From the NCBI RefSeq assembly GCF_030384885.1, contig NZ_CP128613.1: a stretch of 64,000 nt of DNA. One strand, 5' to 3'. The translations under genes were made by a program, and so were the position numbers. This document shows, piece after piece, positions 2,302 through 37,084 of this stretch. Under the pieces are notes generated by a model. It did not search any database. It was not told the origin of the DNA and worked only from the letters and a program-made list of their open reading frames with translations. Source of the stretch: Escherichia coli (GTDB taxonomy: Bacteria; Pseudomonadota; Gammaproteobacteria; Enterobacterales; Enterobacteriaceae). Within the stretch, counting starts at the first letter, position 1. Each line of letters begins with the position of its first letter.

Positions 2302-2997
2302 ATGTTCAGAAAATTAGCAGCTGAATGTTTTGGTACTTTCTGGCTTGTTTTTGGTGGCTGTGGTAGTGCCGTACTGGCCGCAGGCTTCCCGGAATTAGGT
2401 ATTGGTTTTACCGGCGTGGCGCTGGCATTCGGTTTAACCGTTCTGACGATGGCCTTCGCTGTTGGTCATATTTCTGGTGGTCATTTTAACCCGGCGGTCA
2501 CTATTGGCTTATGGGCTGGCGGACGTTTTCCGGCAAAAGAAGTCGTTGGCTACGTAATTGCCCAGGTTGTCGGCGGTATTGTTGCAGCGGCGCTGCTGTA
2601 TTTAATTGCCAGTGGTAAAACGGGATTTGACGCGGTAGCCAGCGGTTTTGCTTCTAACGGTTATGGCGAGCATTCACCAGGCGGTTATTCCATGCTTTCC
2701 GCGCTGGTAGTTGAACTGGTATTGAGTGCAGGTTTCTTGCTGGTGATCCACGGCGCAACCGACAAATTCGCTCCGGCGGGTTTTGCACCAATTGCCATTG
2801 GTCTGGCATTAACGCTGATTCACTTAATCAGTATTCCGGTGACTAACACTTCCGTTAACCCGGCGCGCAGTACTGCGGTTGCCATCTTCCAGGGCGGCTG
2901 GGCGTTAGAACAACTGTGGTTCTTCTGGGTGGTGCCAATTGTCGGCGGCATTATCGGTGGTCTGATTTACCGGACTCTGCTGGAAAAACGTAATTAA
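2302..2997 (+). CDS. aqpZ: Aquaporin Z (231 aa)
   Basis: Translation [22 protein letters not shown]; ATG at 2302 preceded by GAGGTGGA RBS; the ORF-track GTG start at 2296 is rejected. Confidence 0.95.
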
Positions 2998-3007
2998 TTA
3001 ACGCAGA

Positions 3008-3035
3008 AGGCCTGGCGCAATGTCAGGCCTTTTTT
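3008..3035 (+). terminator. Rho-independent terminator of aqpZ
   Basis: Stem AGGCCTG / CAGGCCT around a 9-nt loop, followed by TTTTT. Confidence 0.7.
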
Positions 3036-3089
3036 AAATATATTGATTCATCTTCCTGTTGCGCTCCTTGATGTGTTAAGCCACATATA

Positions 3090-3330
3090 GTCACTGGCGC
3101 AGGGAGCGCGCAGGGGGCGGCCAATCGCCGCCGCCCCCTGCACCCCCGGGCTCTGGCGAACAAAATCGCCGCTGCGCGGTGCCCTCGACTTATCCCTTGC
3201 GGCTACCGGGTCGGGCGCGAGGTAACATCCCGGTAAAACGCGCCCTCAGCCCACATCCATGTGGGCTGCCCCGGCCTTCAGGGAACACCTCGGCGATTTT
3301 GACGCCACCAACACCGGTGAGGTTTGTAAT
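3090..3330. repeat. GC-rich structured intergenic element with nested palindromes, class not recognised
   Basis: Perfect 12-bp inverted repeat GCAGGGGGCGGC...GCCGCCCCCTGC and a second palindrome CCCACATCCATGTGGG in a block far more GC-rich than flanking intergenic DNA. Confidence 0.4.
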
Positions 3331-3479
3331 TAAAGCGCAAGAATATCTTTAAATGAAAATGAATACCCTACCGATCCTTATGCATAACATTTCCTTTTAA
3401 TTGCAACTTTACTCGTCCTTCTGCTTTCAGTAGTGTGTCATCGCGCATTTCGAATCTTCTTTGCAAGGACTGGGTTTTC

Positions 3480-4379
3480 ATGTTTTCTGGGCTGTTAATC
3501 ATTCTGGTTCCCCTGATTGTGGGTTACCTCATTCCGCTTCGCCAAAAAGCTGCATTAAAGGTTATTAATCAGCTATTAAGCTGGATGGTTTACCTTATTC
3601 TCTTTTTTATGGGTATCAGTCTGGCGTTTCTCGATAACCTCGCCAGTAACCTGTTGGCGATTCTGCATTATTCCGCCGTCAGTATTACCGTTATTTTACT
3701 GTGTAATATTGCCGCCCTGATGTGGCTGGAGCGAGGCCTACCGTGGCGCAACCACCATCAGCAAGAAAAACTCCCGTCGCGTATTGCGATGGCGCTGGAG
3801 TCCCTCAAGCTCTGCGGTGTGGTGGTGATTGGCTTTGCTATTGGCCTTAGCGGATTAGGTTTCTTACAACACGCTACGGAAGCCAGCGAATACACGTTAA
3901 TTCTGCTACTTTTCCTCGTCGGTATTCAGTTGCGCAATAATGGCATGACCTTAAAGCAGATTGTCCTTAATCGCCGGGGAATGATTGTCGCCGTGGTGGT
4001 GGTTGCCAGTTCATTAATTGGTGGTTTAATTAACGCCTTTATTCTTGATCTTCCCATCAATACCGCGCTGGCAATGGCCTCCGGTTTCGGCTGGTATTCT
4101 CTTTCCGGTATTTTATTGACCGAATCTTTTGGTCCGGTAATCGGGAGCGCGGCGTTTTTTAATGATTTGGCCCGTGAGCTGATTGCTATTATGTTGATCC
4201 CTGGGCTGATTCGCCGTAGCCGCTCGACTGCACTGGGCTTATGCGGTGCGACGTCGATGGATTTCACCCTGCCCGTTCTTCAACGTACTGGCGGGCTGGA
4301 TATGGTCCCGGCGGCGATTGTTCACGGTTTTATTCTTAGCCTGTTAGTGCCGATCCTCATCGCCTTTTTCTCTGCATAA
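3480..4379 (+). CDS. lysO: L-lysine exporter LysO/YbjE (299 aa)
   Basis: Translation from internal ATG MFSGLLIILVPLIVGYLIPL; multi-pass membrane protein. Confidence 0.9.
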   Translation: MFSGLLIILVPLIVGYLIPLRQKAALKVINQLLSWMVYLILFFMGISLAFLDNLASNLLAILHYSAVSITVILLCNIAALMWLERGLPWRNHHQQEKLPSRIAMALESLKLCGVVVIGFAIGLSGLGFLQHATEASEYTLILLLFLVGIQLRNNGMTLKQIVLNRRGMIVAVVVVASSLIGGLINAFILDLPINTALAMASGFGWYSLSGILLTESFGPVIGSAAFFNDLARELIAIMLIPGLIRRSRSTALGLCGATSMDFTLPVLQRTGGLDMVPAAIVHGFILSLLVPILIAFFSA

Positions 4380-4522: not shown

Positions 4523-6175
4523 ATGTTTTGTGTGCAATGTGAACAAACTATCCGTACTCCGGCAGGAAACGGCTGCTCATACGCGCAGGGGATGTGTGGT
4601 AAAACGGCGGAAACCTCTGACCTTCAGGATTTACTCATCGCGGCGCTGCAAGGGCTTTCGGCCTGGGCAGTAAAAGCGCGTGAATACGGCATCATCAACC
4701 ATGACGTTGACAGCTTCGCGCCGCGCGCATTTTTCTCAACCCTGACCAACGTTAATTTCGATTCTCCGCGTATTGTCGGCTACGCCCGTGAAGCAATTGC
4801 CCTGCGTGAGGCGCTGAAAGCACAGTGCCTGGCTGTAGATGCCAACGCCCGCGTCGATAACCCGATGGCTGACCTGCAACTGGTGAGTGACGATCTCGGC
4901 GAGCTGCAACGTCAGGCGGCGGAATTTACTCCCAATAAAGATAAAGCGGCGATTGGCGAAAACATTCTCGGCCTGCGTCTGCTCTGCCTGTATGGCCTGA
5001 AAGGTGCTGCCGCCTATATGGAACACGCGCACGTTCTCGGTCAATATGACAACGATATTTACGCCCAGTACCATAAAATCATGGCATGGCTGGGTACCTG
5101 GCCTGCCGATATGAACGCACTTCTCGAGTGCTCCATGGAAATCGGCCAGATGAACTTCAAAGTGATGAGCATTCTGGACGCAGGCGAAACCGGTAAATAC
5201 GGTCACCCGACGCCAACTCAGGTCAACGTCAAAGCGACGGCGGGTAAATGCATTCTGATTTCCGGTCACGATCTCAAAGATCTCTACAACTTGCTGGAAC
5301 AGACCGAAGGCACGGGCGTTAATGTCTACACTCACGGCGAAATGCTGCCTGCCCACGGCTACCCGGAGCTGCGTAAATTCAAGCATCTGGTCGGTAACTA
5401 CGGCAGCGGCTGGCAGAATCAGCAAGTAGAGTTCGCTCGCTTCCCTGGACCTATCGTGATGACCTCGAACTGCATCATCGACCCAACCGTAGGGGCTTAT
5501 GACGATCGTATCTGGACCCGCAGCATCGTTGGCTGGCCGGGTGTGCGTCATCTGGATGCTGATGATTTCTCAGCAGTTATTGCCCAGGCACAACAAATGG
5601 CGGGCTTCCCGTACAGCGAAATTCCGCACCTGATCACCGTGGGCTTTGGTCGTCAGACGCTGCTTGGCGCGGCGGATACGCTGATTGATCTGGTGAGCCG
5701 TGAAAAACTGCGTCATATCTTCCTGCTCGGTGGCTGTGACGGCGCACGCGGCGAGCGCCACTACTTCACCGATTTCGCCACCAGCGTGCCAGATGACTGC
5801 CTGATCCTGACTCTCGCCTGCGGTAAATATCGCTTTAACAAACTTGAGTTCGGCGATATCGAAGGTCTGCCGCGTCTGGTAGATGCTGGTCAATGTAACG
5901 ATGCTTACTCAGCGATTATTCTGGCTGTCACTTTGGCAGAAAAACTGGGCTGCGGTGTCAACGATCTGCCGTTGTCGCTGGTACTCTCCTGGTTCGAACA
6001 AAAAGCGATTGTTATTCTGCTGACGCTGCTTTCTTTGGGCGTGAAAAATATCGTTACCGGCCCGACTGCACCTGGCTTCCTGACGCCAGACCTGCTGGCG
6101 GTACTGAACGAGAAATTCGGCCTGCGTTCTATCACCACTGTTGAAGAAGACATGAAGCAACTGTTGAGCGCGTAA
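4523..6175 (+). CDS. hcp: Hybrid-cluster protein (hydroxylamine reductase / NO reductase), 550 aa
   Basis: Translation [28 protein letters not shown] with the N-terminal Cys cluster; ATG at 4523. Confidence 0.95.
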
Positions 6176-6186
6176 GGAGTTTGTCG

Positions 6187-7155
6187 ATGACGATGCCAAC
6201 CAATCAATGCCCGTGGCGGATGCAGGTTCATCACATTACGCAAGAAACGCCGGATGTGTGGACGATTTCCCTGATTTGCCACGATTACTACCCGTATCGC
6301 GCCGGGCAATATGCGCTGGTCAGCGTGCGTAACTCAGCGGAAACGCTGCGTGCTTACACCATTTCCTCCACGCCAGGCGTGAGTGAATACATCACTCTGA
6401 CCGTGCGGCGGATTGATGACGGTGTCGGTTCCCAGTGGCTGACCCGCGATGTAAAACGCGGTGACTACCTCTGGCTTTCGGACGCGATGGGGGAATTTAC
6501 CTGCGACGATAAAGCAGAAGATAAATTCCTGTTGCTGGCGGCCGGCTGCGGTGTCACACCGATTATGTCGATGCGTCGCTGGCTGGCGAAAAATCGCCCG
6601 CAGGCTGATGTGCAGGTGATCTACAACGTGCGTACGCCGCAGGATGTTATTTTCGCCGATGAATGGCGTGACTATCCGGTGACACTGGTGGCGGAAAATA
6701 ACGTTACCGAGGGTTTCGTTGCCGGACGTCTGACACGTGAACTGCTGACAAGCGTTCCTGATTTAGCCTCTCGTACTGTGATGACCTGTGGCCCGGCTCC
6801 GTATATGGATTGGGTAGAGCAGGAAGTGAAAGCGCTCGGCGTGACGCGTTTCTTTAAAGAGAAGTTCTTTACGCCAGTGGCGGAAGCAGCAACCAGCGGT
6901 CTGAAATTCACCAAACTGCAACCGGCGCAAGAATTTTACGCACCTGTTGGCACCACACTGCTGGAGGCTTTGGAAAGCAACAAAGTTCCGGTTGTCGCCG
7001 CCTGCCGTGCAGGTGTTTGCGGCTGCTGTAAGACGAAAGTAGTTTCCGGTGAATATACGGTGAGCAGCACGATGACGCTGACCGACGCCGAAATCGCAGA
7101 AGGTTATGTACTGGCCTGCTCCTGCCATCCGCAGGGGGATTTGGTTCTCGCATAA
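6187..7155 (+). CDS. hcr: NADH oxidoreductase for Hcp (322 aa)
   Basis: Translation MTMPTNQCPWRMQVHH...; C-terminal 2Fe-2S ferredoxin motif CRAGVCGCCKT; immediately downstream of hcp. Confidence 0.95.
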   Translation: MTMPTNQCPWRMQVHHITQETPDVWTISLICHDYYPYRAGQYALVSVRNSAETLRAYTISSTPGVSEYITLTVRRIDDGVGSQWLTRDVKRGDYLWLSDAMGEFTCDDKAEDKFLLLAAGCGVTPIMSMRRWLAKNRPQADVQVIYNVRTPQDVIFADEWRDYPVTLVAENNVTEGFVAGRLTRELLTSVPDLASRTVMTCGPAPYMDWVEQEVKALGVTRFFKEKFFTPVAEAATSGLKFTKLQPAQEFYAPVGTTLLEALESNKVPVVAACRAGVCGCCKTKVVSGEYTVSSTMTLTDAEIAEGYVLACSCHPQGDLVLA

Positions 7156-7164
7156 TCGTATTAT

Positions 7165-7190
7165 GCCCGATGATATACCTGTCATCGGGC
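7165..7190 (+). terminator. Hairpin downstream of hcr, possible hcp-hcr terminator
   Basis: Stem GCCCGATGA / TCATCGGGC; weak T tract after the stem. Confidence 0.35.
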
Positions 7191-7287
7191 AGTTTAACCG
7201 TTAGTGCCTCATTTTTCTCCCATCTCTTCCCCCTCCGTCAGATGAACTAAACTTGTTACCGTTATCACATTCAGGAGATGGAGAACC

Positions 7288-9006
7288 ATGAAACAAACGG
7301 TTGCAGCTTATATCGCCAAAACACTCGAATCAGCAGGGGTAAAACGCATTTGGGGAGTCACGGGCGACTCTCTGAACGGTCTTAGCGACAGTCTTAATCG
7401 CATGGGCACCATAGAGTGGATGTCCACCCGTCATGAAGAAGTGGCGGCCTTTGCCGCTGGCGCTGAAGCCCAACTTAGCGGGGAACTGGCGGTCTGCGCC
7501 GGATCATGCGGACCTGGCAACCTGCACTTAATCAACGGTTTGTTCGATTGTCACCGTAATCACGTTCCGGTACTGGCAATTGCCGCTCATATCCCTTCCA
7601 GCGAAATTGGCAGCGGCTATTTCCAGGAAACCCACCCGCAAGAGTTATTCCGTGAATGTAGCCATTATTGCGAGCTGGTTTCCAGCCCGGAGCAGATCCC
7701 ACAAGTGCTGGCGATTGCTATGCGTAAAGCGGTGCTAAACCGTGGCGTTTCGGTTGTCGTTTTACCGGGCGACGTGGCGCTAAAACCTGCACCGGAAGGG
7801 GCAACTACCCACTGGTATCACGCCCCCTTACCCGTTGTCACACCTGAAGAAGAAGAGTTACGCAAACTGGCGCAACTGCTGCGTTACTCAAGCAATATCG
7901 CCCTGATGTGCGGTAGCGGCTGCGCGGGGGCGCATAAAGAGCTCGTCGAGTTTGCCGGAAAAATTAAAGCGCCAATTGTTCATGCCCTGCGCGGTAAAGA
8001 ACATGTCGAATACGATAATCCGTATGATGTCGGAATGACGGGATTAATCGGCTTCTCGTCAGGTTTTCATACCATGATGAACGCCGACACGTTAGTGCTG
8101 CTCGGCACCCAATTCCCCTACCGTGCGTTCTACCCGACCGATGTCAAAATTATTCAGATTGATATCAACCCGGCCAGCATCGGCGCGCACAGTAAGGTGG
8201 ATATGGCACTGGTCGGTGATATCAAATCGACTCTGCGTGCATTGCTGCCTTTAGTGGAAGAAAAAACCGATCGAAAATTTCTGGATAAAGCGCTGGAAGA
8301 TTACCGCGATGCCCGCAAAGGGCTGGACGATTTAGCTAAACCGAGTGAGAAAGCCATTCACCCGCAATATCTGGCGCAGCAAATTAGCCATTTTGCTGCC
8401 GATGACGCCATTTTCACCTGTGATGTCGGCACACCAACGGTATGGGCGGCGCGTTATCTGAAAATGAACGGCAAGCGCCGCCTGTTAGGTTCGTTTAACC
8501 ACGGTTCAATGGCCAACGCCATGCCGCAGGCGCTGGGTGCTCAGGCGACAGAGCCAGAACGTCAGGTGGTCGCCATGTGCGGTGATGGTGGTTTCAGTAT
8601 GTTGATGGGCGATTTTCTCTCAGTGGTACAAATGAAGCTGCCAGTGAAAATTATCGTCTTTAACAACAGCGTGCTGGGCTTTGTAGCGATGGAGATGAAA
8701 GCCGGAGGCTACCTGACAGACGGCACCGAACTGCACGACACCAACTTTGCCCGTATCGCTGAAGCGTGCGGTATTACGGGCATCCGCGTAGAAAAAGCCG
8801 CTGAAGTCGATGAAGCCTTGCAACGCGCCTTTTCCATCGACGGCCCGGTGCTGGTGGATGTGGTAGTCGCGAAAGAAGAGTTAGCCATTCCGCCGCAGAT
8901 CAAACTCGAACAGGCCAAAGGATTTAGCCTGTATATGTTGCGCGCAATCATCAGCGGACGCGGTGACGAAGTGATCGAACTGGCGAAAACGAACTGGCTA
9001 AGGTAA
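7288..9006 (+). CDS. poxB: Pyruvate oxidase (ubiquinone), 572 aa
   Basis: Translation [32 protein letters not shown]; thiamine-diphosphate enzyme. Confidence 0.95.
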
Positions 9007-9042
9007 AAAGGGTGGCATTTCCCGTCATAATAAGGACATGCC

Positions 9043-10044
9043 ATGATTGATTTACGCAGTGATACCGTTACCCGACCGAGCCGCGCCATGCTCGAAGCAA
9101 TGATGGCCGCCCCGGTTGGGGACGACGTTTACGGAGACGACCCTACCGTTAATGCTCTGCAGGACTATGCGGCTGAGCTTTCCGGTAAAGAAGCCGCCAT
9201 TTTTCTGCCTACCGGCACCCAGGCTAACCTGGTCGCGCTGCTCAGTCACTGCGAACGCGGCGAAGAGTATATTGTCGGTCAGGCCGCGCATAACTATCTG
9301 TTTGAAGCCGGTGGCGCAGCGGTGCTGGGCAGTATTCAGCCGCAACCCATCGATGCTGACGCCGACGGTACGCTACCGCTGGATAAAGTGGCGATGAAAA
9401 TCAAACCCGACGATATCCATTTCGCCCGCACCAAATTACTCAGTCTGGAAAACACCCACAATGGAAAAGTGCTGCCGCGGGAATACCTGAAAGAAGCATG
9501 GGAATTTACTCGCGAGCGCAATCTGGCACTGCATGTTGACGGTGCGCGTATCTTTAATGCCGTGGTGGCTTACGGCTGCGAACTGAAAGAGATCACGCAA
9601 TATTGTGATTCGTTCACCATTTGTCTGTCGAAAGGTCTTGGTACGCCAGTCGGTTCATTACTGGTCGGCAATCGTGATTACATTAAACGCGCCATCCGCT
9701 GGCGGAAAATGACTGGCGGCGGGATGCGTCAATCCGGCATTCTGGCTGCCGCAGGGATGTATGCGCTGAAAAATAACGTCGCACGCTTGCAGGAAGACCA
9801 CGACAACGCAGCCTGGATGGCGGAGCAGTTGCGTGAAGCAGGCGCGGATGTGATGCGTCAGGACACCAATATGCTGTTTGTTCGCGTCGGACAAGAAAAT
9901 GCTGCCGCGTTAGGCGAATACATGAAAGCGAGAAACGTACTGATTAACGCCTCGCCGATTGTCCGCCTGGTAACCCATCTTGATGTCTCGCGTGAACAAC
10001 TGGCAGAAGTCGCAGCCCACTGGCGCGCTTTCCTGGCGCGTTAA
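9043..10044 (+). CDS. ltaE: Low-specificity L-threonine aldolase (333 aa)
   Basis: Translation [33 protein letters not shown]. Confidence 0.95.
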
Positions 10045-32797: not shown

Positions 32798-33334
32798 CTA
32801 CCCGGCAACCCTCTCAACCATCCTCAAAATCTCCTCGCGCGATAGCGGCTTACGGTCGGTGACAAAATGCAGCGTCATCCCCTCAATAAACGCATCAAGC
32901 GCGCGGGCGGTTCCGGGTTCAAACCATTGTTCGAGCGTTTGCTGACTGCGCTGCATCCAGTTTTGCATTACCGTTTTTAATAGCGGTTTTCGGCTAGCCA
33001 GCGCGTAGAGCTGGTACATCAGCTCCATGTTATCCGGCGTTGCAACCTGTGAGCTGTAGATCATATCGGTGATAGCCTGGCATGCGCCCGGAGCATCACT
33101 AACATCGCTAAAAAATGCCTGATATTGCCGGGACATGATCTCGGTAAAACTGCTGAACGCCTCCAGCAACAACTCATCAATCCCTGAAAAATAGTAGGTC
33201 ATCGATCCTAATGGTACCCCGGCAAGGGTAGCGATTTTGCGGTGCGTAACGGCATGTATTCCGTAAAGTTTCACCGCCTCCAGTGTGGCCTGGATGATTT
33301 TTTCTCGCCGTTGCGGATCGTTAGCGCGACGCAT
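32798..33334 (-). CDS. rcdA: TetR-family regulator RcdA/YbjK (178 aa)
   Basis: Translation [49 protein letters not shown] with TetR HTH. Confidence 0.9.
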
Positions 33335-33417
33335 GTCATTTCCTCTCTCTGCAATTGTGTACAAATGTACACAACCTTGCTAATGTTGTCTTCCCTCTTC
33401 TTATTTTGACGTGATCT

Positions 33418-34626
33418 ATGACCGTAAATTCTTCACGTAATGCATTGAAACGCCGAACCTGGGCGCTGTTTATGTTCTTCTTTTTGCCGGGCCTGTTAAT
33501 GGCGTCCTGGGCAACTCGTACACCTGCTATCCGCGATATTCTTTCTGTTTCGATCGCTGAAATGGGCGGAGTCCTCTTTGGTCTGTCGATCGGTTCAATG
33601 AGCGGTATTCTCTGCTCGGCGTGGTTAGTGAAACGCTTTGGGACGCGTAATGTCATCCTGGTCACGATGTCCTGCGCATTGATCGGGATGATGATATTAA
33701 GTCTGGCACTCTGGCTGACATCGCCCCTGCTCTTTGCCGTTGGTCTCGGCGTCTTTGGGGCAAGTTTTGGTTCTGCAGAAGTGGCGATAAACGTTGAAGG
33801 TGCCGCCGTTGAGCGAGAAATGAATAAGACGGTTTTGCCGATGATGCACGGTTTTTATAGCCTGGGCACGCTGGCAGGCGCTGGTGTCGGGATGGCACTG
33901 ACGGCCTTTGGCGTTCCGGCAACGGTGCACATTTTATTGGCGGCGCTGGTAGGCATCGCGCCTATTTATATCGCCATTCAGGCAATCCCTGACGGTACGG
34001 GCAAAAATGCTGCCGATGGCACCCAGCATGGTGAAAAAGGCGTACCTTTTTATCGCGATATCCAGTTGCTGCTGATTGGTGTCGTGGTTCTGGCGATGGC
34101 CTTTGCCGAAGGTTCTGCCAACGACTGGTTACCCTTATTAATGGTTGACGGTCACGGTTTTAGCCCTACTTCCGGCTCGCTGATTTATGCCGGTTTTACC
34201 CTGGGGATGACTGTTGGACGCTTTACCGGCGGTTGGTTCATCGACCGTTATAGTCGCGTTGCCGTGGTTCGGGCCAGTGCACTGATGGGAGCGTTGGGTA
34301 TTGGGCTGATTATTTTTGTCGATAGCGCCTGGGTCGCTGGGGTGTCTGTTGTACTTTGGGGACTGGGTGCCTCGCTGGGCTTCCCGCTGACCATTTCTGC
34401 CGCCAGCGATACCGGCCCCGATGCACCGACCCGCGTCAGCGTGGTAGCAACGACCGGTTATCTGGCTTTCCTCGTCGGGCCGCCGCTGCTGGGCTATCTC
34501 GGCGAACATTATGGATTACGTAGTGCAATGCTGGTTGTACTGGCGCTGGTTATTCTTGCGGCTATTGTCGCGAAAGCCGTCGCCAAACCCAATACCAAAA
34601 CGCAGACGGCGATGGAGAATAGTTGA
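33418..34626 (+). CDS. ybjJ: MFS transporter YbjJ (402 aa)
   Basis: Translation [42 protein letters not shown]; divergent from rcdA. Confidence 0.9.
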
Positions 34627-35441
34627 TGAGCATTAAATTAATTGCGGTAGACATGGATGGTACTTTCTTAAGCGATCAAAAAACCTATAACCGTGAGCGG
34701 TTTATGGCTCAGTATCAGCAGATGAAAGCACAAGGCATTCGCTTTGTGGTCGCCAGCGGGAATCAATATTATCAGTTGATCTCTTTCTTCCCTGAAATTG
34801 CTAATGAAATTGCCTTTGTGGCTGAAAACGGCGGTTGGGTTGTAAGCGAAGGCAAAGATGTTTTTAATGGCGAGCTGTCGAAGGATGCGTTTGCTACTGT
34901 GGTGGAACATTTACTGACGCGCCCAGAAGTGGAAATTATTGCCTGCGGAAAAAATAGCGCCTATACCCTCAAAAAATATGACGATGCCATGAAAACGGTG
35001 GCGGAAATGTATTATCACCGTCTGGAATACGTCGATAACTTTGATAATTTAGAAGATATCTTCTTTAAGTTTGGCCTGAATCTTTCCGATGAACTGATTC
35101 CACAAGTGCAAAAAGCATTACATGAGACCATCGGCGATATTATGGTGCCGGTCCACACCGGCAACGGCAGCATCGATCTGATTATCCCCGGCGTACATAA
35201 AGCGAATGGCCTGCGCCAACTTCAGAAATTATGGGGAATAGACGACAGCGAAGTGGTGGTCTTCGGCGATGGTGGTAACGATATTGAGATGCTGCGTCAG
35301 GCAGGCTTTAGTTTTGCGATGGAAAATGCCGGCAGCGCGGTCGTCGCAGCGGCAAAATACCGGGCAGGCTCCAATAATCATGAAGGTGTACTGGATGTGA
35401 TCGATAAAGTTCTTAAACACGAAGCGCCTTTTGATCAATAA
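34626..35441 (+). CDS. ybjI: HAD-superfamily phosphatase YbjI (FMN / 5-amino-6-(5-phospho-D-ribitylamino)uracil phosphatase), 271 aa
   Basis: Translation [26 protein letters not shown] with HAD motif I DMDGT; ATGA overlap with the ybjJ stop. Confidence 0.9.
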   Translation: MSIKLIAVDMDGTFLSDQKTYNRERFMAQYQQMKAQGIRFVVASGNQYYQLISFFPEIANEIAFVAENGGWVVSEGKDVFNGELSKDAFATVVEHLLTRPEVEIIACGKNSAYTLKKYDDAMKTVAEMYYHRLEYVDNFDNLEDIFFKFGLNLSDELIPQVQKALHETIGDIMVPVHTGNGSIDLIIPGVHKANGLRQLQKLWGIDDSEVVVFGDGGNDIEMLRQAGFSFAMENAGSAVVAAAKYRAGSNNHEGVLDVIDKVLKHEAPFDQ

Positions 35442-35526
35442 AAACGGTAGCACGCCCGGCAACACAAAGCCTGAATGAAGGCTGCATAATTCGCAGAAAT
35501 TAACCCGCTGCATTATTTCAGGCAAA

Positions 35527-35811
35527 ATGATTATGAAAAATTGTCTACTGTTGGGCGCGCTTTTAATGGGCTTTACTGGTGTGGCGATGGCGCAAAGTGT
35601 CACCGTCGATGTGCCGAGTGGATACAAAGTGGTTGTGGTCCCTGATTCAGTCAGCGTTCCACAAGCAGTCAGCGTCGCGACTGTGCCGCAAACCGTCTAT
35701 GTGGCTCCTGCGCCAGCTCCGGCTTACCGCCCGCATCCGTATGTTCGCCATCTTGCCAGCGTAGGTGAAGGGATGGTTATCGAACACCAGATTGATGACC
35801 ATCACCATTAA
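35527..35811 (+). CDS. ybjH: Secreted small protein YbjH (94 aa)
   Basis: Translation MIMKNCLLLGALLMGFTGVAMAQSVTVDVPSGYKVVVV with signal peptide. Confidence 0.8.
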   Translation: MIMKNCLLLGALLMGFTGVAMAQSVTVDVPSGYKVVVVPDSVSVPQAVSVATVPQTVYVAPAPAPAYRPHPYVRHLASVGEGMVIEHQIDDHHH

Positions 35812-35817
35812 TTTGAA

Positions 35818-35853
35818 AATGCCTGATTGCTTTACGCAACCAGGCATTTTTTT
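35818..35853. terminator. Bidirectional terminator between ybjH and mdfA
   Basis: 13-bp stem AATGCCTGATTGC / GCAACCAGGCATT (one mismatch) flanked by an A run upstream and a T run downstream. Confidence 0.7.
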
Positions 35854-37084
35854 ACCCTTCGTGCGAATTACCCATCTGTTTATCTTTTAAAAAGATAACC
35901 ATCAGCAGCAGCCACAAAATCCCGTTGGCAAGGTTGAAGAGATTAAACAGGCCGTTGCCCCCATTCAGCCAGGCATGTTTGCTGATTTCAATACCGACGG
36001 TAAAAATAAGCATTTGCAACATTCCCATCGCCGCAGAAACCGTACCTTTACTCATATCGCTGGCAAACAGGGTCAATCGCACCAATCCCGCATTCGCCAG
36101 GCCAATACCGAAAGCATAAATACTTAACCCGGCGGTCATCCACAAATACGCGTGCGATGAGATAACCGTTGCCGCAGCAGCGACCAACAGGCCAATCATA
36201 ATCGGCCAGCCGCCCATAATAATCAACGAACGTACGGTGCGGCGCGAGGTCAGACGCGCTAGCAGCAAGTTACCCGCAATTAATGCCCCGAAAATAGGCA
36301 CTTGCAGCAAGCCATATTCATAGCTACTCAACTGCTCGCCGGTAATGATGATAATCGGCGACTGGGCGATCCACGCCAGCAACGGCAGGCTAACAAAACC
36401 CAGCGCCAGTGCCCCTGCCACAAAGCGACCGTTCTTCAGCACCAGCTTATAGTCACGACCGAGTTCTTTCAGCGACAGTTTCTCGCCTATACGCGTGGCG
36501 GTTTCAGGCATGGCTCGTTGCAGACCGAAAAAGGAGATCGCTGCCAATGAGGCAAACAAGACGAACATCCCTTCCCAGGGCAGCACATGGATCCACGCCG
36601 CGCCCACCAGCGGACCAAGTAGCGGAGCAATCAGCGCCACGTTCGCCATCAGCGCGGTGATCTTGATACAAACCGCCTCTTCGAAGGACTCCTGAATTGC
36701 GGCGTAACCCACAGCGCCAATGAAACAGAGGCTTATGCCCTGCAAGAAGCGCAACAGCGTGAATTGTTCAATGTTTTGCGCCAGTAATATCGCCAGACAA
36801 GTGATGATAAACCACACTACTCCCGCCAGCATCACCGGACGGCGACCAATACGATCCGACAGTGGTCCCAGCAGCCACTGTAAAAACATCCCGCCCGCCA
36901 GATACGCGGTCATCGAAGTAGGAACCCAATCAATGCCCGCCTGATATTGTTCCACCACGGCCAACATACCGGGTTGAATCATATCGTTGCCGATATAGGT
37001 TGAAAATTCGTAAAGCACCAGACAGAGAGGGAAAAGTAACGCCTGACGTCCAAGCCTGGCACCGGAAGCTAATCTATTTTGCAT
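35852..37084 (-). CDS. mdfA: Multidrug efflux MFS transporter MdfA/Cmr (410 aa)
   Basis: Translation [41 protein letters not shown] from internal ATG. Confidence 0.95.

Follow-up and report, generated by a model that had tools for sequence, protein, structure and literature searches.

YbjI and YbiV, two paralogous Cof-type HAD phosphatases of Escherichia coli in different genomic contexts

YbjI and YbiV are two Cof-type phosphatases of the haloacid dehalogenase (HAD) superfamily, whose genes lie on the same strand, 26.2 kb apart, in a stretch of Escherichia coli DNA of 64,000 nt (assembly GCF_030384885.1, contig NZ_CP128613.1; the whole stretch is called the window below). Our results describe them as both E. 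coli members of one narrow Cof-type subfamily. An old duplication with later subfunctionalisation appears to be the most likely history of the pair. YbjI, encoded by the distal gene of the RcdA-repressed ybjJI operon together with a transporter, would act on ArPP (5-amino-6-(5-phospho-D-ribitylamino)uracil) and flavin mononucleotide (FMN) in the riboflavin pathway, redundantly with YigB. YbiV would be the product of an autonomous gene with a CRP-bound upstream region and would serve as a sugar-phosphate phosphatase. We are confident of the identity, paralogy and architecture of the two genes as described here, and we lean, less firmly, towards the view that their physiological substrates are non-redundant.

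Both open reading frames, ybjI (34626..35441, + strand) and ybiV (60827..61642, + strand), encode proteins of 271 aa. Positions 33300-35900 and 56800-62000 of the window are each 100% identical to E. coli 2013C-4282 (NZ_CP027579.1), and the two frames coincide with coding sequences annotated there in RefSeq as ybjI, with the product name 5-amino-6-(5-phospho-D-ribitylamino)uracil phosphatase, and ybiV, with the product name sugar-phosphatase YbiV. The coordinates proposed in an initial annotation of the window are exact, and its gene names are supported by this record and by orthology to E. coli K-12. Orthology to b0844 and b0822 of K-12 is established by sequence, synteny and clade. YbjI of K-12 (b0844) is 98.9% identical to that of the window, with three substitutions (A168T, S175P, R252H), and the 96.2% nucleotide identity of the two genes reflects strain-level divergence alone. 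Its neighbours are also the same, in the order rcdA-ybjJ-ybjI-ybjH-mdfA, the window being reversed relative to K-12 MG1655. YbiV of K-12, also called SupH (b0822), shares 96% identity with the window protein, which carries 11 substitutions, including four among its final six residues; its gene follows ybiW, has the same CRP site and occupies the same slot, ybiW-ybiV-(ybiU)-ybiT. Four structures of K-12 YbiV are available (PDB IDs: 1RLM, 1RLO, 1RLT and 2HF2). Among 5426 complete E. coli genomes, ybjI was matched in 5422 and ybiV in 5425; both are near-universal core genes of the species.

The two proteins align by BLASTP without gaps, with 140 of 269 residues identical (52%) and 67% positives (E 2e-102). 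The 48% of positions at which they differ are densest in residues 71-140. As a baseline we used the five other Cof-type paralogues of E. coli K-12: Cof, YbhA, YedP, YidA and YigL. The YbjI-YbiV pair scores about 287 bits at 51-52% identity, compared with 23-69 bits and 17-29% identity for comparisons with these five, which belong to TIGR00099/PF08282 as the pair does and carry the four catalytic motifs too, and nevertheless fall outside its subfamily. Among proteins of solved structure, YbiV (1RLM) is the best match to YbjI (297 bits, E 7e-88), followed by SMU.1108c of Streptococcus mutans (PDB 3L7Y; 178 bits) and by YidA (55 bits). In a bootstrapped neighbour-joining tree of 52 sequences, the YbjI/YbiV subfamily is split from four other Cof paralogues in 100% of bootstraps. 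The paralogy postulated in the initial annotation is thus well founded, and the similarity lies far above the level of shared motifs. All seven Cof-like phosphatases, YbjI and YbiV included, had already been grouped together in the literature (PMC3040653); the names of the genes, their family and activities, the structures of YbiV and the regulation by RcdA and CRP were likewise known. Both genes being named, annotated and biochemically characterised, and the Cof-like family being a textbook case of enzyme redundancy, the pair carries little weight as a discovery; what is contributed here is the quantitative demonstration that the two belong in a single subfamily, clearly distant from the five remaining paralogues.

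Members of the HAD superfamily hydrolyse phosphomonoesters in a Mg-dependent reaction that proceeds via an aspartyl-phosphate intermediate, and in the Cof-type fold the central region of the protein forms a cap over the active site. Both YbjI and YbiV are Cof-type HAD-IIB hydrolases, as the initial annotation had it. They match TIGR00099 (Cof-type HAD-IIB) over its full length (1-256 of 256) with 193.9 and 214.5 bits, respectively (cutoff 137), and PF08282 end to end with 187.1 and 177.1 bits (cutoff 20.9). Each protein has the four HAD motifs intact: DMDGT, VVASGN and HKANG are present in both, and the GDGGND of YbjI aligns with the GDSGND of YbiV, as had been stated; the other strings quoted earlier, including FVAENG, were also found in both proteins. 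The motifs are kept in at least 90% of the orthologues of both clades, except position 216 inside motif IV, which is fixed as glycine in the YbjI clade and as serine in the YbiV clade. The complete catalytic apparatus argues that both are Mg-dependent phosphomonoesterases, in which Asp9 of the DxDGT motif would be the nucleophile forming the aspartyl-phosphate, assisted by the serine of motif II, the lysine of motif III and the acidic GDxxND motif. In each protein, Ser44 and Lys192 lie about 147 residues apart, which fits a large C2-type cap between motifs II and III. Both are homologous over their full length to the Cof-type structure 1RLM, residues 1-270 of YbjI aligning with residues 1-270 of 1RLM in a PDB sequence search (E 7.4e-88). 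Both proteins accordingly classify by sequence as probable carriers of a large C2-type cap with approximate boundaries. The second-best NCBIfam model for both is NF045966, an equivalog of riboflavin-metabolism phosphatases related to the YcsE-type ArPP phosphatases of Bacillus subtilis. YbjI (98.1 bits) and YbiV (104.9 bits) score far below its cutoff of 220, and neither therefore belongs to that equivalog, although both are related to it.

The gene context of ybjI is formed by a transporter gene and a divergently transcribed regulator. The ybjJ gene (33418..34626, + strand) is the first gene of the ybjJI operon and encodes a transporter of the major facilitator superfamily (MFS), 402 aa long, confirmed by RefSeq and by PF07690 (MFS_1, E 1.7e-33), this generic model being its sole match at Pfam level; YbjJ had no match in the PDB sequence search and all its NCBIfam matches were sub-threshold, so these searches gave no close relative that is characterised. 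The rcdA gene (ybjK; 32798..33334, - strand), annotated in the identical RefSeq record as a TetR-type regulator, is divergent from ybjJ-ybjI. In the 83-bp spacer between rcdA and ybjJ lies the RcdA-box palindrome TTGTGTACAAATGTACACAA (33355..33374), which is the reverse complement of TTGTGTACAttTGTACACAA published for the ybjJ-rcdA spacer (PMC3535384). The 'ybjJI operon' was found by Shimada et al. in 2012 to be derepressed in an rcdA mutant, both by Northern blot and with a lacZ fusion (PMC3535384). With the RcdA operator and the stop/start coupling both present in the window, and co-transcription known from the same publication, ybjI is a member of this operon. A scan for sigma-70 consensus sequences found no + strand promoter match for either ybjJ or ybiV and is uninformative.

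The initial annotation had described ybjJ and ybjI as fused by an ATGA overlap. This has to be corrected: the junction reads AGT TGA TG AGC, and the genes overlap by 1 nt (TGATG, 34624..34628, + strand), the stop codon of ybjJ occupying 34624-34626 and the start codon of ybjI 34626-34628. The string ATGA does occur at 34626-34629, its TGA being out of the ybjJ frame. The same 1-nt overlap is annotated in K-12, where ybjJ ends and ybjI starts at 886131. The junction was further compared among the best 80 loci from a YbjI scan of 100,044 species-representative genomes, of which 46 Enterobacteriaceae loci had an assessable upstream region. In all 46 of these a ybjJ orthologue precedes ybjI on the same strand, and an rcdA homologue stands beside ybjJ in all but two. 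The 1-nt overlap is present in 21 loci and the 4-nt ATGA overlap in 14; the genes abut in 3 and are separated in 5 by a spacer of 11-28 nt containing GGAG. A 1.64-kb insertion separates them in 2 loci (Franconibacter and Enterobacter pulveris), and the remaining locus has an apparent frameshift in a draft assembly. The genes thus overlap or abut in 38 of 46 loci and are at most 28 nt apart in 43. Coupling is thus conserved, and the exact overlap is not. From these sequences ybjI appears to be translationally coupled to ybjJ. The insertion, seen in Franconibacter helveticus (L042, 2366-3835) and E. pulveris (L044), is the one clear interruption of this coupling in the 46 loci; it holds a gene for flagellin on the opposite strand (Flagellin_N and Flagellin_C domains).

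Given the strictly conserved coupling, what YbjJ transports is the question most worth answering here; the link between the genes does not itself identify a substrate. Conserved coupling under a dedicated repressor could mean that YbjJ and YbjI act on the same molecule, an idea to which we assign a low probability. YbjI might, for instance, remove the phosphate from a phosphorylated metabolite that YbjJ then exports in its dephosphorylated form; ArPP to 5-amino-6-ribitylaminouracil and FMN to riboflavin would be examples of such a reaction. Were the two to share a molecule, ybjJI would constitute a regulated overflow or secretion route for an intermediate of the riboflavin pathway.

Two observations on neighbouring genes concern the limits of this arrangement. 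YbjI-like genes of Yersinia species (at position 4001 of loci L055, L056, L060 and L074; 54-55% identity) also have an MFS gene upstream, at about 2640-3815. It is 28% identical to YbjJ and separated from the YbjI-like gene by a gap of 183-195 nt with a GC hairpin followed by T8. We considered it as a sign of deeper ybjJ-ybjI linkage and set this aside, since the low identity and the terminator-like gap make the gene probably unrelated; the pair may represent either an independent association or a much-decayed relationship to ybjJ. Downstream of ybjI, the small gene ybjH (35527-35811; compare loci L012, L014, L022, L024 and L026-L030) occurs in Escherichia and in many loci of Citrobacter. Among the scanned ybjI loci, no tblastn match to it was obtained in Salmonella, several Citrobacter and more distant genera, so its presence next to the ybjJI operon varies.

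Divergence between YbjI and YbiV is unevenly distributed along the proteins. By region, with approximate boundaries that are based on where the motifs lie and on what is generally known of the fold rather than on coordinates, identity is 71% in residues 1-80, 40% in residues 81-186 and 48% in residues 187-271. The minimum of a sliding window falls at residues 71-140, with 5-8 of 20 residues identical. Comparison of 46 YbjI with 91 YbiV orthologues revealed 15 clade-fixed differences, defined as positions conserved in at least 90% within each clade and differing between them. Eight of these lie in the central residues 81-186, three before them (1-80) and four after them (187-271). Those in or near the cap are (YbjI/YbiV) W71/L71, E75/H75, N81/H81, H95/E95, K109/L109, Y118/A118, Y129/H129, V174/K174 and S182/F182. 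In the comparison of cap residues suggested in the initial annotation, the central region is thus the most diverged and clade-fixed differences exist, and their excess in the cap is not significant. Divergence of the cap, roughly residues 71-140, may underlie a difference in substrate between YbjI and YbiV. Clade-fixed differences make up 8% of cap and 4-5% of core positions, a trend that falls short of significance, and we do not rely on it as proof of diverged specificity.

Substrate profiling is reportedly due to Kuznetsova et al. (2006), the discovery of the ArPP phosphatase to Haase et al. (2013) and the structure of YbiV to Roberts et al. (2005). YigB is presumably a member of HAD subfamily IA, with a cap type different from that of YbjI. 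Like YbjI, it dephosphorylates ArPP and FMN (PMC7017516). The two enzymes are unlike in their effect on riboflavin production: the titre fell by 89.6% on overexpression of ybjI and rose by 7.6% on that of yigB (PMC11731478), and from these opposite effects it follows that they are not interchangeable in vivo. YbiV has been employed as a hexose-phosphate (sugar-phosphate) phosphatase in metabolic engineering (PMC12801476). The claim that the contexts of ybjI and ybiV suggest distinct physiological substrates can be retained in part. The literature agrees with it, ArPP and FMN standing against sugar phosphates, and the ybjJ-ybjI link is real; the link of ybiV to its neighbours is positional. Since the published in-vitro specificities overlap, the claim is plausible rather than shown.

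Several observations weigh against the division of roles and the history proposed here. Single deletion of ybjI or yigB does not cause riboflavin auxotrophy, so that a distinct physiological role is not proven (PMC7017516). In vitro, there is substantial overlap between the substrates accepted by the seven Cof-like enzymes (PMC3040653). Clade-fixed differences are not significantly enriched in the cap (8/106 vs 7/165, Fisher p = 0.28). Read-through from ybiYW into ybiV may occur in E. coli, the hairpin between them (described below) having no U-run and ybiV no sigma-70 match. Finally, the deeper nodes of the tree, a Yersinia/Erwinia group and Bacilli, have bootstrap values of 16-25%; the duplication may have taken place within Enterobacterales, or one copy may have been acquired from or shared with Bacilli.

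The first two of these observations would also be expected if both proteins were redundant, promiscuous "housekeeping" phosphatases whose contexts are historical accidents without bearing on substrate. Redundancy of this kind would further suit the neighbours of ybiV, which differ between genera, and the heterogeneous contexts of distant subfamily members, where 155 Pfam families occur among 113 neighbours. We nevertheless regard it as rather unlikely. Both genes are near-universal in E. coli and are kept as separate clades across Enterobacteriaceae, with the 15 clade-fixed differences between them; ybjI is coupled to ybjJ in all assessable loci, the regulators are different (RcdA for ybjI and CRP for ybiV), and the overexpression phenotypes of ybjI and yigB are opposite. 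The contexts of the distant members (in Yersinia, Erwinia, Bacilli and Erysipelotrichia) have a weak flavour of sugar and phosphotransferase system genes, and no riboflavin genes are among their 25 commonest families. They were looked at as a clue to ancestral function, and on account of their heterogeneity no conclusion was drawn.

The context of ybiV is of another kind. In the window it is preceded by fsa (56557..57219, - strand), encoding fructose-6-phosphate aldolase according to RefSeq and divergent from ybiY-ybiW; by ybiY (57350..58249, + strand), encoding a glycyl-radical enzyme activase according to RefSeq, with a Radical_SAM Pfam domain in its orthologues; and by ybiW (58255..60687, + strand), whose reading frame and RefSeq entry give a glycyl-radical enzyme of 810 aa. 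The start of ybiV lies 139 nt past the end of ybiW, on the same strand. It could accordingly be supposed that ybiV is a dedicated part of a fsa-ybiY-ybiW pathway of 1,5-anhydroglucitol, for example a relief valve on 1,5-anhydroglucitol-6-phosphate or 1-deoxyfructose-6-phosphate. By the account of Ma et al. (JACS 2024) as cited in PMC12441222, YbiW is reported to cleave the former of these sugar 6-phosphates to the latter; YbiV is a sugar-phosphate phosphatase (PMC12801476), and control by CRP would suit a pathway for a carbon source. Adjacency and co-orientation of ybiV with ybiYW, found in E. coli and Enterobacter kobei and in Yokenella, where the gene order is as in E. coli, also speak for such a role.

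This arrangement is not conserved across orthologues. Kosakonia has a gap of 823 nt between ybiW and ybiV and no fsa. In Siccibacter and Klebsiella sp. RIT-PI-d, ybiV stands beside moeB and there is no ybiYW, and in Cronobacter and Mangrovibacter the gene of the YbiV clade is at a different locus, beside smrA/fnr. In Salmonella enterica (L089), ybiV (6001-6810) is inverted and convergent on ybiW (6888-9320), and fsa is missing between ybiY and moeB. Together with the strong hairpin and the upstream element of its own that separate ybiV from ybiW, these cases make a dedicated role in the pathway quite improbable, and ybiV does not qualify as a third gene of the operon. The statement that ybiV follows the glycyl-radical operon holds by position; judging from gene order in these genomes, the link is positional and does not appear to be that of a conserved operon. 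The substrate of YbiV should not be deduced from its 1,5-anhydroglucitol glycyl-radical neighbours. Returning to the reading of ybiV as an autonomous gene, it would occupy a stable slot (moeB ... ybiT) in which the fsa/ybiY/ybiW module is variably present.

Transcription of ybiV independently of ybiYW can be inferred from two elements of the spacer. The first is the hairpin directly 3' of the ybiW stop codon (60693..60722, + strand), with a 13-bp stem. Its predicted folding energy is -24.4 kcal/mol with a z-score of -5.8, none of 200 shuffled sequences being as strong. K-12 keeps the stem although both arms carry several substitutions there, and this points to selection for the structure. It may serve as a terminator, an attenuator or a stabiliser of mRNA, all of which are candidate roles. 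The second element is the CRP site TGTGCTCCGCGTCACA (60764..60779, + strand), 63 nt upstream of the ybiV ATG, an exact match to TGTG-N7-TCACA, of the form TGTGC-N6-TCACA, inside the best-conserved block of the ybiW-ybiV spacer. Two matches to this consensus occur in the window against 0.6 expected, and 11 of 100 shuffles reach at least two, which is not significant alone; the case for the site therefore rests on its conservation and on published binding. Its position relative to the start codon is -63/-64 in the window, in K-12, in Enterobacter kobei and in the inverted gene of Salmonella. The CRP site at position 860084 of K-12 identified by Footprint-seq is this site (PMC12871828), and ybiV is a CRP target by genomic SELEX (systematic evolution of ligands by exponential enrichment; PMC3105977).

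In Salmonella a single gene has been inverted, ybiV being turned relative to ybiW, ybiY and ybiU and the block with the CRP site carried along. From the unchanged position of the site it follows that the upstream block travels with ybiV.

The age of the duplication was assessed at the DNA level and in the tree. The ybjI and ybiV genes are 57% identical, their third codon positions 39%, and the longest exact run in register is 14 nt; synonymous sites are therefore near saturation, and there is no sign of a recent duplication or of a conversion tract. The Enterobacteriaceae YbjI clade received a bootstrap of 95%, the YbiV clade, to which sequences of Cronobacter, Franconibacter and Mangrovibacter belong, 99%, and the YbiV core clade 100%. 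Franconibacter helveticus has one gene in each (L042 in the YbjI clade and P0109 in the YbiV clade). From the separate clades and their co-occurrence in this species it follows that the duplication is older than the radiation of Enterobacteriaceae.

The near-identical N-termini stressed in the initial annotation are real, residues 1-80 being the 71% identical region, and could be taken for a trace of recent duplication or of gene conversion between loci 26 kb apart. A blastn stretch of 212 nt with 72% identity between the 5' end of the window ybiV and the ybjI of K-12 points the same way, as do S16 and E24 of the window YbiV, which are shared with YbjI and replaced by N16 and P24 in the YbiV of K-12. 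We reject a recent event, which the saturation of synonymous sites, the lack of a long identical tract and the monophyly of both clades across genera render very improbable. The N-terminal core holds motifs I and II, and purifying selection accounts for its conservation. Micro-conversion at positions 16 and 24 was rejected as well: both vary as ordinary polymorphism among the 91 YbiV orthologues, where E24 is the commonest residue (25/91) and S16 occurs in 12/91. That YbjI and YbiV might share just the generic motifs of any two HAD enzymes deserves practically no credence and is ruled out by the ungapped BLASTP alignment, the PDB search, the distance from the paralogue baseline and the bootstrap separation of the subfamily.

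Homologues in Bacillus and Paenibacillus are 47-51% identical to YbjI. The homologues in Bacilli differ from ybjI and ybiV in having unrelated and heterogeneous neighbour genes.

The region around ybiV shows several further peculiarities. The segment 56510-61634, which spans fsa-ybiY-ybiW-ybiV, is 94.6% identical to K-12, compared with 96.5-96.8% in its flanks; this extra divergence of the glycyl-radical segment possibly stems from recombination. The stretch 56800-62000 is at least 99% identical in 1 of the 5426 complete genomes and 90-95% identical in 5369. For the ybjJ-ybjI stretch, 12 of these genomes reach at least 99% identity and 5410 fall at 95-99%. So few genomes being at least 99% identical, the strain comes from a rare lineage.

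In K-12, ybiU (4719-6221 of locus L008), which encodes a DUF1479/Gig2-like protein of 421 aa, is located between ybiV and ybiT. It is absent from the window, where about 45 nt within 61643-61841 stand in place of the segment of about 1.5 kb. This ybiU-less junction is a common polymorphism, matched in 1053 of 5426 complete genomes, among them EcN_Sk, a Nissle derivative, and the type strain ATCC 11775, whose annotation bears out the order ybiW-ybiV-ybiT. The breakpoint lies directly at the 3' end of ybiV, and the changes in the last six residues relative to K-12 are T266K, S267P, N270T and S271L.

A second match to TGTG-N7-TCACA in the window, TGTGTACGAAATCACA (63540-63555, - strand), is a candidate CRP site in the divergent spacer between ybiT and ldtB. 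Between ybiV and ybiT, where K-12 also has ybiU, lie dispersed repeats (61684..61781), which comprise GCCGGATGCGGCGTGA...TTATCCGACCTAC and AGGCCTGATAAGCGTAGCGCATCAGGC. By the recognised motif GCCGGATGCGGCGTGA...TTATCCGACCTAC we take them to be repetitive extragenic palindromic (REP) sequences, of the type also found in bacterial interspersed mosaic elements (BIMEs). A query that contains them matches a median of 18 places per genome, because REP/BIME-type repeats are included in it.

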